Below are positions 57,192-58,698 of a DNA stretch of 64,000 bases, piece after piece. The position numbers and the translations under genes were made by a program. Below the pieces are notes generated by a model. That model worked only from the letters and a program-made list of their open reading frames with translations, made no database searches and had not been told where the DNA came from. Numbering within the stretch: position 1 is the stretch's first letter; every line of letters starts with the position of its first letter. The stretch is from Malassezia furfur (taxonomy: Eukaryota): NCBI GenBank assembly GCA_052055015.1, contig JBQJIT010000010.1. One strand, 5' to 3'.

Positions 57192-58698
57192 ATGGTTAGC
57201 AGATAAACGCGGCGATGCGTTCAGGATCCGGAACGACGGAAGTTGTGCCACTTGTCATGTGCGGCAACGCCATGCATCAATGACTGCATCTCTGGACTGC
57301 CGCGGAGCCATGGCGGCCTAGCCACGTAGCGCCGCGCCGCGGAGGCGCCCTGCGTCGTGAACACGGGGCGTGCGGTGCGGCGGCTCGATGCGACACGGGT
57401 GCGACATGTCGACGAGCAGTGGCCTGGAATAAGGTCCGACGATGCGCGCCGTCCACACCCCACTCGGTCGGACAGTCGGTGGGCCGTGGACGGCACCGAT
57501 TTGCAAGGTGCGAGCTGTACGTGCGTGGTGGGTGTGCCCGTACGACGGCGTCCGTACGGGAGGGGACGGTGCCTATGTGGCGCTGTGCCGTGTCGAGGCC
57601 CAGGCCGCGCCGTGGGCGGCCTGTAGGCCCGTGCGATGCAAGAGCGTCGGACGGACGCGAGATGAGACATGGGTGGCCCTGCCTGAGGCGTAGGGTGGCG
57701 TACGAGAGCAGCAGCTGCGGGCACCTGCTGGCGGAGGTCTGCCGTCCCGCGCCGTGTCTGCCCCTCCCCTGCCTCCCGGTGATGATCCGAGATGCAGTCA
57801 TTGAGCGTGAGCCAGGGCCTGTAGCGCCGATGCGCTGCGAGGAAGGTTCCTGGCTCGGCCCGTGCGATGCGGGCCGTGCATCGCGAGAGGCGATGGGATG
57901 CGCGTGTCGCTGGACAGAGCGACCGACGCCGGTCCTGACGTGGAGCCAGCGCGAATGTGTTGGAATGTGTACTTACCCCGCTATTTTTTTCGCTGACAGT
58001 CTACGAACCTTGACAAATGTACGTTGTGCCCACTGACGCAGCCCTTGACGACATCATCTCGACGAAGCGCAAGCAGACGCCCCGTCGCCCCGCGAAGCAG
58101 TCGAGCGCCAAGAAGAACAAGGGTGCCAAGGCTGCTGCGCTCGGTGGCTCGGCCGCTGCGGCTGTCAGCAACGCTAACCGCCAGCAGCCGCCGGTCGTGT
58201 TCCCGGGGCGCAACCAAAAGGGCCCGGGCAGCAAGGTGATTGTGAGCAACCTGCCCGTGGACGTCACCGAAGCGCAGGTCAAGGTACGTGCATCTGCTTA
58301 TATGCCAGGAGCTCTTCTCGACGACGATCGGCCCGCTGCGCCGTGCGCTGATGAGCTACAAGGCCAACGGCCAGTCGACCGGTGTGGTTACGGTCGAGTT
58401 CCAGCGCGCCGAGGATGCCAACCGCGCGTATGCGCAGTACAACAACCGCCTGATCGACAGCAAGCGGCCGCTCAAGATTGAGGTCGTGGTCGACCCTGCC
58501 CGCGCGACGCCCGCGATCGCGGCCAAGCCCGCGGCCAACAAGGCGACCAAGAACAAGGCGGCCAAGAAGGGCGGTGCCAAGAAGGCTGCACCGCGCACGC
58601 CCAAGACCGTCGAGGACCTGGATGCCGAGATGGAGGACTACGCAAAGCAGGGCGCGTCGGAGAATGCGCCGATGCAGGACGCCCAGCCGGCCGCGTAA
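57192..58698 (+). CDS. YRA1: mRNA export adaptor Yra1/Mlo3/ALYREF, 4 exons (exon 1 codes only the ATG)
   Basis: ATG | 805-nt intron | STNLDKS | 23-nt intron (58019-58041) | LDDII N-box; RRM split by intron 58284-58308; C-box KTVEDLDAEMEDY. Gene identity is firm; exon 1 position is inferred. Confidence 0.85.
57195..57999 (+). other. Long structured first intron of YRA1 (805 nt)
   Basis: Donor GTTAGC after ACAAACAATATG; ACTTAC branch-like motif, T7 tract and CAG at the 3' end; multiple inverted repeats. Confidence 0.7.

Follow-up and report, generated by a model that had tools for sequence, protein, structure and literature searches.

Gene structure at the YRA1 locus

The sequence studied was a 64-kb stretch of Malassezia furfur-like DNA (the window), in which the region from ~57000 to 58700 holds two divergent genes, QCR8 on the minus strand and a gene for a Yra1/ALY-type RNA-binding protein, YRA1, on the plus strand. 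The analysis concerns the first intron of YRA1, a sequence of 805 nucleotides (nt) with a G+C content of 66.8% (57195–57999, plus strand; ATG/GTTAGC...CAG/TCT), which is predicted to interrupt the gene directly behind its start codon. In this model, the start codon (57192–57194, plus strand) makes up the entire coding part of exon 1, and exon 2 is a 19-nt micro-exon (58000–58018, plus strand) that encodes STNLDK and the first base of the following S codon. The remainder of the gene, likewise on the plus strand, is composed of intron 2 (58019–58041; 23 nt, GTACGT...CTGACGCAG), exon 3 (58042–58283; 242 nt) with the rest of the N-box (LDDII), a basic linker and the start of the RNA recognition motif (RRM), intron 3 (58284–58308; 25 nt) and exon 4 (58309–58698), which contributes the RRM and the C-terminal FoP/C-box region, as judged from Pfam and the identity to M. 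furfur YRA1, and ends with the stop codon TAA at 58696–58698.

The exon carrying the N-box begins directly behind the acceptor at 57999 and contains no in-frame ATG, as a first-pass annotation of this DNA had stated. It opens with TCT ACG AAC CTT GAC AAA and is preceded by ...gctgacAG (AG at 57998–57999), i.e. GCTGACAG; since a TGA lies in frame at 57994–57996, exon 2 is unable to start translation. Excision of intron 1 restores the reading frame and yields M-STNLDKSLDDII, a protein of 217 amino acids with a single terminal stop. The product is 96% identical to M. furfur YRA1, gives a Pfam RRM_1 match above the cut-off (E 1.2e-07) and scores 24.2 bits with FoP_duplication, slightly below the cut-off of 24.6 bits. 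Both the N-box and the C-box are present, which identifies it as the Yra1/ALY (ALY/REF) orthologue, an adaptor in mRNA export. As read from the sequence, exon 1 very probably consists of the 5' untranslated region and the ATG only, with exon 2 supplying the universal Yra1 N-terminus. Transcription presumably starts between ~57120 and 57190.

Conservation of the ATG-only first exon

Metagenome contigs were scanned with an alignment of Malassezia Yra1 (5 rows), yielding five usable loci of 8.7 kb each (L001–L005), with L001–L003 representing one lineage plus its sister and L004–L005 another lineage. A distant RRM match (L006) was left out, L007 and L008 were unrelated bacterial RRM matches, and a search of viral contigs for further relatives gave no match. 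The nonamer ATGGTTAGC, which spans the start codon and the donor, occurs in one copy in the 64-kb window and in one copy in each of the loci L001–L005, and in 3/3 Malassezia lineages it is always placed between a conserved promoter block and the N-box exon. Between the QCR8 ATG and exon 2, an ATG directly followed by GT is unique (1/1) in the window and also in L002 and L003, and an A is found at position -3 of the YRA1 ATG in all three lineages (window, L002 and L004).

Locus L004 was spliced by script, using an ATG-only exon, a 467-nt intron and four small introns of 24–26 nt. The resulting product, which starts MSSNLDK, is identical at 227/227 residues to P0124, an NCBI entry from Malassezia titled 'Similar to S.cerevisiae protein YRA1'. 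Exon 2 of L004 is directly preceded by CAG, not ATG, and the P0124 model must therefore also take its M from an upstream ATG-only exon; its annotation thus already implies an ATG-only first coding exon and a long intron. The start at ATG 57192, the ATG-only exon and the donor GTTAGC had been proposed in the first-pass annotation, and the nonamer and the agreement with P0124 bear them out. P0123 (952-nt Logan contig, further species) starts MASNLDK and corresponds to the fully spliced form. Relatives from the Basidiomycota start M(x0-4)LDKSLDDII, e.g. MDKSLDDII, MNLDRPLDDII or MSANLDKPLDEII, and M-STNLDKSLDDII is therefore the N-terminus to be expected. The homologous intron 1 measures 403 nt in L001–L003 and 467 nt in L004–L005, against 805 nt in the window.

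The small introns of YRA1 follow STNLDK and QVK in the window (58019–58041 and 58284–58308). L002 is devoid of introns at these two sites and has introns after NRLIDG (4446–4477) and EME (4649–4674), and L004 (4026–4724) carries all four. The tiny introns of YRA1 would so appear to have been gained or lost recently, with intron 1 always being kept.

Among the ten named Malassezia YRA1 entries seen, the expected N-terminus is found in P0124 only. Entries from M. furfur, M. cuniculi, M. psittaci and Malassezia sp. CBS 17886 read through the end of intron 1, and those from M. nana, M. pachydermatis, M. yamatoensis and M. vespertilionis start later. In the M. furfur entry P0003, the N-terminus reads MCTYHATFFGRQ and results from read-through of the final 36 nt of intron 1; 18 conserved RRM residues (ELFSTTIGPLRRALMSYK) are omitted from it, and its annotation is unreliable. 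The conserved ATGGTTAGC provides a simple rule by which other Malassezia YRA1 annotations could be corrected.

The neighbouring QCR8 gene (UcrQ family; 56655–57029, minus strand; Pfam UcrQ E 1.6e-22) has small introns of 38 and 25 nt and starts at ATG 57029–57027. Its divergent orientation and the distance of 162 bp between its ATG (57029) and that of YRA1, both recorded earlier, agree with the Pfam match and the coordinates, and QCR8 is also the divergent neighbour in L002 and L004. Between the two genes lies a conserved block (window 57070–57115, L002 3412–3470, L004 3356–3412) comprising CGCTCGGGGTTTT, ACCAATC (CCAAT-box-like) and TCGGCCGAA, which are the only 7-mers besides the start and donor to occur in the same order in three lineages. 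From this arrangement we infer a promoter element shared by QCR8 and YRA1.

Length and sequence constraint of intron 1

The small introns read in the window, L002 and L004 (n=10) are 23–38 nt long with a median of 25 nt (10/10), so that intron 1 with its 805 nt reaches ~32 times the median. The earlier estimate of about 35 times was correct in that the intron is far longer than its neighbours, and too high in its exact factor. The curated M. sympodialis annotation counts 5350 introns averaging 30 bp, with RNA-sequencing support for 99% (PMC5389616), and a review terms Malassezia introns 'very short' (PMC7426719). Since intron maxima of >1 kb appear in Figure S8 of the M. sympodialis study (PMC5389616), intron 1 of YRA1 is not necessarily the longest of its genome. 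Lengths of 403, 467 and 805 nt next to small introns of 23–38 nt (10/10) agree with the proposal that a long intron persisted here despite general intron shrinkage, and intron 1 would accordingly qualify as a selected, genus-wide exception to introns of ~25 nt.

Of 8733 aligned positions, 553 (6.3%) distinguish locus L002 from L003, compared with 0.23% between L001 and L002; by this measure, L002 and L003 would appear to represent either sister species or deeply separated lineages within a single Malassezia species. Within intron 1, the same pair shows 6 differences in 403 positions (1.5%; Fisher P 2.9e-6 versus the locus). Divergence elsewhere amounts to 7.9% in the shared promoter, 4.3% in the rest of YRA1, 3.8% in QCR8 and 6.5–7.5% in the flanking genes. 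When the comparison was divided into 22 segments of 400 nt, the segment with intron 1 was the lowest, with 7 differences against 11–46 in the others. It so appears that the whole of intron 1, rather than a single motif, is under purifying selection in the L002/L003 lineage, and we consider it likely that the intron sequence is functionally constrained.

Splice signals

The donor GTTAGC (57195–57200, plus strand) is identical in the three lineages and carries a non-consensus C at +6, whereas positions +5 and +6 of the small introns are G and T in 10/10 cases. The donor block ATGGTTAGCA is conserved across distant lineages. At the other end of the intron, TACTTAC (57970–57976, plus strand) contains CTTAC as a distal branch-point candidate; GTACTTAC is common to the window and L002, and the corresponding motif in L004 is TGCTTAC. 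It is followed by an AG-free, pyrimidine-rich stretch (57977–57999, plus strand; 70% C+T) that leads to GCTGAC (57992–57997) and the acceptor AG (57998–57999). In 3/3 lineages, the acceptor is the first AG downstream of TRCTTAC, with tracts of 21, 44 and 36 nt, and in L002 and L004 an AG sits 0–2 nt upstream of TRCTTAC. This AG-exclusion zone suggests that the branch point, or one of several, is the distal CTTAC.

A proximal CTRAC motif is present as well, the GCTGAC of the window abutting the acceptor AG. Both CTTAC and CTGAC are ordinary branch candidates for Malassezia: CTTAC is found in two of the small introns of L002, and CTGAC, CTCAC, CTAAC and CTAAT are found in others. Only 2–7 nt separate the branch motif from the acceptor AG in the small introns, and intron 1 is therefore built differently.

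The sequence GTACTTAC(C), located at 57970–57978 in the window and ~3959–3967 in L002, is the exact complement of the consensus donor GGTAAGTAC and resembles the 5' end of U1 small nuclear RNA. It could pair with donor-like sequences besides serving as a branch site. In the minimum-energy fold of the L004 intron alone, the donor is paired with the TGCTTAC region. The donor GUUAG is also complementary to the proximal CURAC in all three lineages (window 57195–57200/57992–57997; L004 3539–3544/3993–3998). A pairing of the donor with GCUGAC was considered and rejected as too inconsistent to claim, its probability in the window being 0.09–0.33 and its occurrence in L004 being limited to the minimum-energy fold in 2/3 contexts.

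A conserved long-range helix and 3' module

Alignment of the whole upstream regions with MAFFT misplaced the ATGGTTAGC of the window; k-mer anchors were used instead, and the 5' module and the 3' module were aligned separately. Just a few blocks, i.e. the donor, the arms of a helix and a 3' splice module, are conserved between distant lineages. In the window, the candidate 5' arm CAGGATCCGG (57222–57231, plus strand; intron nt 28–37) pairs with the 3' arm CCGGTCCTG (57929–57937, plus strand; intron nt 735–743) over 9 bp with one bulge. The counterparts of the 5' arm are GGGGACCGGGG in L002 (intron nt 71–81) and GGACCGGG in L004 (nt 80–87), the latter being one of only two sequences of at least 7 nt that the L002 and L004 introns have in common in the same order. 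Of the 3' arm, the alignment shows the 7-mer CCGGTCC to be common to the window and L004. The conserved helix has the form GGA(U)CCGG / CCGGU(U)CC, its arms also being given as CAGGAUCCGG/CCGGUCCUG. The 3' arm forms the first block of the 3' module, which consists of CCGGT(T)CC, 32–36 nt including GG(A/G)(G/C)CC, AATG and TGGAA, and then T(A/G)CTTAC; the module is alignable in all three lineages, with an arm-to-TRCTTAC spacing of 32–36 nt.

The predicted pair probability of this helix is 0.93–0.98 for the L002 intron alone and 0.59–0.68 with flanks, at least 0.99 for L004 and 0.80–1.0 for the window intron alone; for the window, the modelled pairing is regarded as tentative. The substitutions between the L002 and L003 introns keep a predicted pair in 2 cases, fall on unpaired positions in 3 and break a pair in 1, numbers too small to argue for or against structure. 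An alternative partner of CCGGTCC, the GGACCGG of exon 1 (57174–57180), was dismissed at a probability of at most 0.03.

Across the 3' arm, the frame of the window reads PVLTW, as does M. psittaci P0135 with the same 42-nt spacing to CTTAC; in P0131, P0129 and P0009, the TRCTTAC element is translated as MCTY or ECLP. These back-translations are a hint, and no proof, that more of the 3' module may be common to other species.

The 16-bp inverted repeat and the fold of the window intron

The first-pass annotation had drawn attention to a 16-bp inverted repeat, four hairpins and a cryptic donor within intron 1, all of which are present, with perfect repeats. The 5' arm of the 16-bp helix (57277–57292, plus strand) pairs with the 3' arm (57789–57804, plus strand), thereby closing a loop of 496 nt with a G+C content of 67–72%. 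The helix is found in this lineage only. It begins with intron nt 83, stops 170 nt short of the A of TACTTAC and sits inside the conserved helix described above. Dinucleotide shuffles of the intron reached 16 bp in 0/500 cases, the longest repeat obtained being 14 bp, and with a pair probability that stays at or above 0.97 in all contexts modelled, the helix is thermodynamically dominant. The hairpins comprise one perfect stem of 9 bp (57448–57456/57486–57494) and three of 8 bp (57537–57544/57553–57560, 57601–57608/57616–57623 and 57809–57816/57849–57856); the cryptic consensus donor GTACGT is located at 57517. The minimum free energy of the window intron is -429.1 kcal/mol (z -5.98; 0/20 shuffles as good), and the L004 intron is also more stable than its shuffles (z -3.13). 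That the 16-bp helix matters for splicing is conceivable, although we lean towards doubting it.

A perfect direct repeat of 14 nt (GGCCCGTGCGATGC) occurs at 57626–57639, inside the clamped loop, and at 57857–57870, outside it, and a second, similar repeat pair is found at 57618 and 57816. This pattern suggests that the window intron may have grown by local duplication.

Possible intron retention and proposed mechanism

Translation of an RNA that retains intron 1 stops after 4 codons in the window (MVSR), 10 in L002 and 13 in L004. Two proteins derived from transcripts have the downstream introns removed while the 3' end of intron 1 is kept. P0129, from the M. furfur lineage (7 contigs, the longest of 1531 nt), differs from the window protein at 6/216 residues, and P0005, from the L002 species (1060-nt JGI contig), is 100% identical over the first 148 residues. 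The coexistence of spliced (P0123, P0124) and retained forms would be expected from slow or regulated splicing of intron 1.

In the mechanism that we propose, the intron would have four parts: an invariant donor, a long-range helix closing most of the intron, a conserved 3' module and a variable core, which in the window lineage would be enlarged and clamped by the perfect 16-bp helix. Splicing of intron 1 is taken to be slow or regulated. Unspliced RNA, which would stop after 4–13 codons, would make no Yra1 and be degraded, and the spliced fraction would set the Yra1 level, probably under negative feedback by Yra1/TREX as in Saccharomycotina. On balance, we slightly favour the view that expression is limited or regulated at the splicing of intron 1. 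A role of Yra1 itself as the regulator, suggested by analogy, is reasonable, though we hold it to be somewhat less likely than not. Taken as one, this proposal and the regulation through intron 1 splicing that it includes are in our view as likely as not.

Comparison with known intron-based regulation

The intron of S. cerevisiae YRA1 mediates negative feedback, the exported unspliced RNA being degraded via an Edc3-dependent route that requires several intron modules (PMC2864733), and a conserved predicted structure has been reported within it (PMC4937481). Excess Yra1 in yeast is described as impairing mRNA export and growth and as destabilising the genome (PMC4818039). The hemiascomycete YRA1 genes all contain a long intron whose branch point departs from the consensus; in Yarrowia lipolytica (YALI0A20867g), splicing of the 850-bp first intron is inefficient, and nonsense-mediated decay targets the unspliced form (PMC2911113). 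Among the papers listed in the literature searches, from which most subscription journals were missing, no report was found on the Malassezia YRA1 intron or on a long YRA1 intron outside Saccharomycotina.

The Malassezia gene resembles its S. cerevisiae counterpart in that it belongs to the same Yra1/ALY family and has one exceptionally long intron in an intron-poor genome. The two also have in common a splice signal that departs from the consensus and is putatively weak in Malassezia, an unspliced RNA that in Malassezia would be non-productive as well, and several constrained intron elements. The off-consensus signal is the donor GTTAGC here and the branch point there, with no sequence similarity between the introns. 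The Yarrowia gene shares the long first intron and has a TGCTGAC three bases from the 3' splice site, comparable to the GCTGAC that abuts the AG in the window; the decay of its unspliced RNA has its parallel in the fate predicted here from the early stop. It differs in being from an ascomycete, and the conserved branch candidate in Malassezia is a second, distal CTTAC with an AG-free tract.

Zipper stems and structural splicing enhancers of S. cerevisiae introns (RPS17B, RPL7B) likewise pair a region downstream of the donor with one upstream of the branch point. A zipper stem is defined by a total linker of 42–85 nt to the 5' splice site plus the branch point (PMC12350175), and the RPL7B stem together with a competing structure brings about autoregulation (PMC12311795). 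The 16-bp helix, with a linker of ~250 nt, lies outside this range. The weaker outer helix fits the definition with a linker of 64 nt, given an assumed branch point and a pair probability that varies between 0.11 and 1.0 with the context. The Malassezia introns further differ from zipper stems in that no gain in distance over shuffles was obtained and no competing structure was identified.

Evidence against the proposal and alternative explanations

Several points count against the proposal as a whole. Just three lineages were compared, and L004 contains three ATG/GT candidates (3537, 3820 and 3870), of which only that at 3537 is conserved. With flanks, the pair probability of the conserved helix in the window is 0.11–0.71, two of the three contexts giving 0.11–0.26, and among the three lineages no pair showed a true compensatory change. 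The 16-bp helix is absent from the other two lineages, whose introns contain no perfect inverted repeat of at least 9 bp, and the idea of this stem as a conserved element had to be abandoned. The L002 intron folds no better than its shuffles (z -0.15; 40/100 as good), and in minimum-energy folds the structural distance that separates the 5' splice site from the branch point does not fall below that of shuffles (window, 16 vs 16.4, 23/60 as short; L002, 27 vs 27.1, 77/150 as short; L004, 5 vs 21.7, 42/150 as short), a short end-to-end distance being generic for such folds. The retained ends of P0005 and P0129 might reflect an internal transcription start or an assembly break, and the constraint might concern the DNA itself or an unknown RNA within the intron instead of the control of splicing. 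In S. cerevisiae, moreover, the intron starts at nt 286 (PMC2864733), i.e. after nt 285, as opposed to after nt 3 (codon 1) here, and exon 1 is tiny here whereas its length matters there (PMC2911113). A survival of the control in the sense of one and the same intron is not borne out by these positions. What remains of the originally suggested structure-dependent control is the sequence constraint and a conserved helix other than the one proposed, with the splice sites brought no closer than in shuffles; similarly, the comparison across Malassezia recovered a conserved donor, the other helix and the CTTAC module, but neither a compensatory change nor the 16-bp stem.

The intron might have been kept for other reasons, with its helices acting passively, as a zipper stem or splicing enhancer and not as a sensor, to loop out the bulk of the sequence, so that a spliceosome tuned to 25-nt introns is still able to bring donor and branch module together, without any feedback by Yra1. 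This reading accommodates the high-probability long-range helix that closes all three introns, the linker of the outer helix (27 + 37 = 64 nt), which falls within the 42–85 nt of S. cerevisiae zippers (PMC12350175), and the position of the cryptic donor at 57517 inside a local helix in the minimum-energy fold. Shuffled introns, however, place the splice sites equally close, and a spacer with two short arms explains neither the constraint on the whole intron (6/403 vs 6.3%) nor the invariant weak donor; we regard passive structure as distinctly unlikely. Somewhat less unlikely is the possibility that the 16-bp repeat marks a lineage-specific insertion or expansion without regulatory role, be it an element similar to a foldback or miniature inverted-repeat transposable element (528 nt, 57277–57804) or a product of local duplications, which is tolerated because its paired ends extrude it. 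The perfect terminal arms suggest a recent origin, the helix is missing from L002–L004, whose introns are 338–402 nt shorter, and the 14-nt direct repeat (57626, 57857) links the loop to the outside and hints at local duplication. On the other hand, inspection by eye revealed no target-site duplication beside the arms, and the 64-kb window contains no second copy of an arm (with up to 3 mismatches) or of the element.

Rather improbable, in our estimation, is a further unit hosted by the intron, such as a processed non-coding RNA or a DNA-level enhancer or promoter for QCR8/YRA1, even though the constraint spans the whole intron and exceeds that on the flanking coding sequence, the window intron is strongly structured (z -5.98) and retained introns of other intron-poor fungi are described as often carrying small nucleolar RNAs (PMC8476143). 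Rfam gave no match in window positions 56900–58300 (E up to 10) or in the L002 and L004 introns (E up to 1), a weak sR44 match outside intron 1 being the only one in L002, and conservation across distant lineages is confined to the donor, the helix arms and the 3' module, with no compact RNA core. The three long open reading frames of the intron (231–259 amino acids, both strands) match no Pfam family and are expected by chance at 67–72% G+C. As to a different gene model, RNA synthesis might begin within the region and translation at ATG 57955 (MCWN), followed by a 33-nt intron (GTGTAC...CAG, 57967–57999), or translation might start within the retained intron end, the form given in the public M. 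furfur annotation (MCTYHATFFGRQ-STNLDK). ATG 57955 is indeed in frame once the 33-nt GT-AG stretch is removed, and NCBI P0003 and Logan P0129 begin with the ATG that follows, in the 3'-terminal part of the intron. Neither ATG is conserved in frame, though, with ATG 57965 of the window shifted by 1 nt relative to the frame, and no corresponding open frame exists in L002 or L004; GTGTAC has neither the G at +5 nor the T at +6 that all 10 small introns share, the extra residues are unlike any Yra1 N-terminus, and P0003 also skips the 18 conserved RRM residues. This model we hold to be very improbable indeed, and the interpretation retained is that of an ATG-only first exon followed by a long, constrained intron whose splicing may control Yra1 production.

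Implications

The dosage of Yra1/ALYREF is critical, and just one means of its control has been studied well, namely the long intron of Saccharomycotina YRA1. If the interpretation is true, a long and strongly constrained YRA1 intron at another position, in a basidiomycete with other introns of ~25 nt, would point to either convergence or a very old form of intron-based feedback. More speculatively, and with reservations on our part, feedback by Yra1 through a long intron may be a general fungal principle that has arisen twice or moved within the gene, the whole 400–800-nt intron RNA being the sensor. The parts of such a sensor would be the weak cap-proximal donor AUG/GUUAGC, the long-range helix and the distal CUUAC module complementary to the consensus donor, which could together act as a switch that directs the RNA either to splicing or to a retained, non-productive state, as set by Yra1/TREX loading. 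Beyond YRA1, the L002/L003 pair is useful for finding constrained non-coding DNA elsewhere. Agrobacterium-mediated transformation is established for Malassezia (PMC5654937). For Malassezia itself, intron 1 would serve as a natural experiment on how a spliceosome suited to tiny introns copes with one that is thirty times longer, and on the RNA structures that are needed for this purpose.

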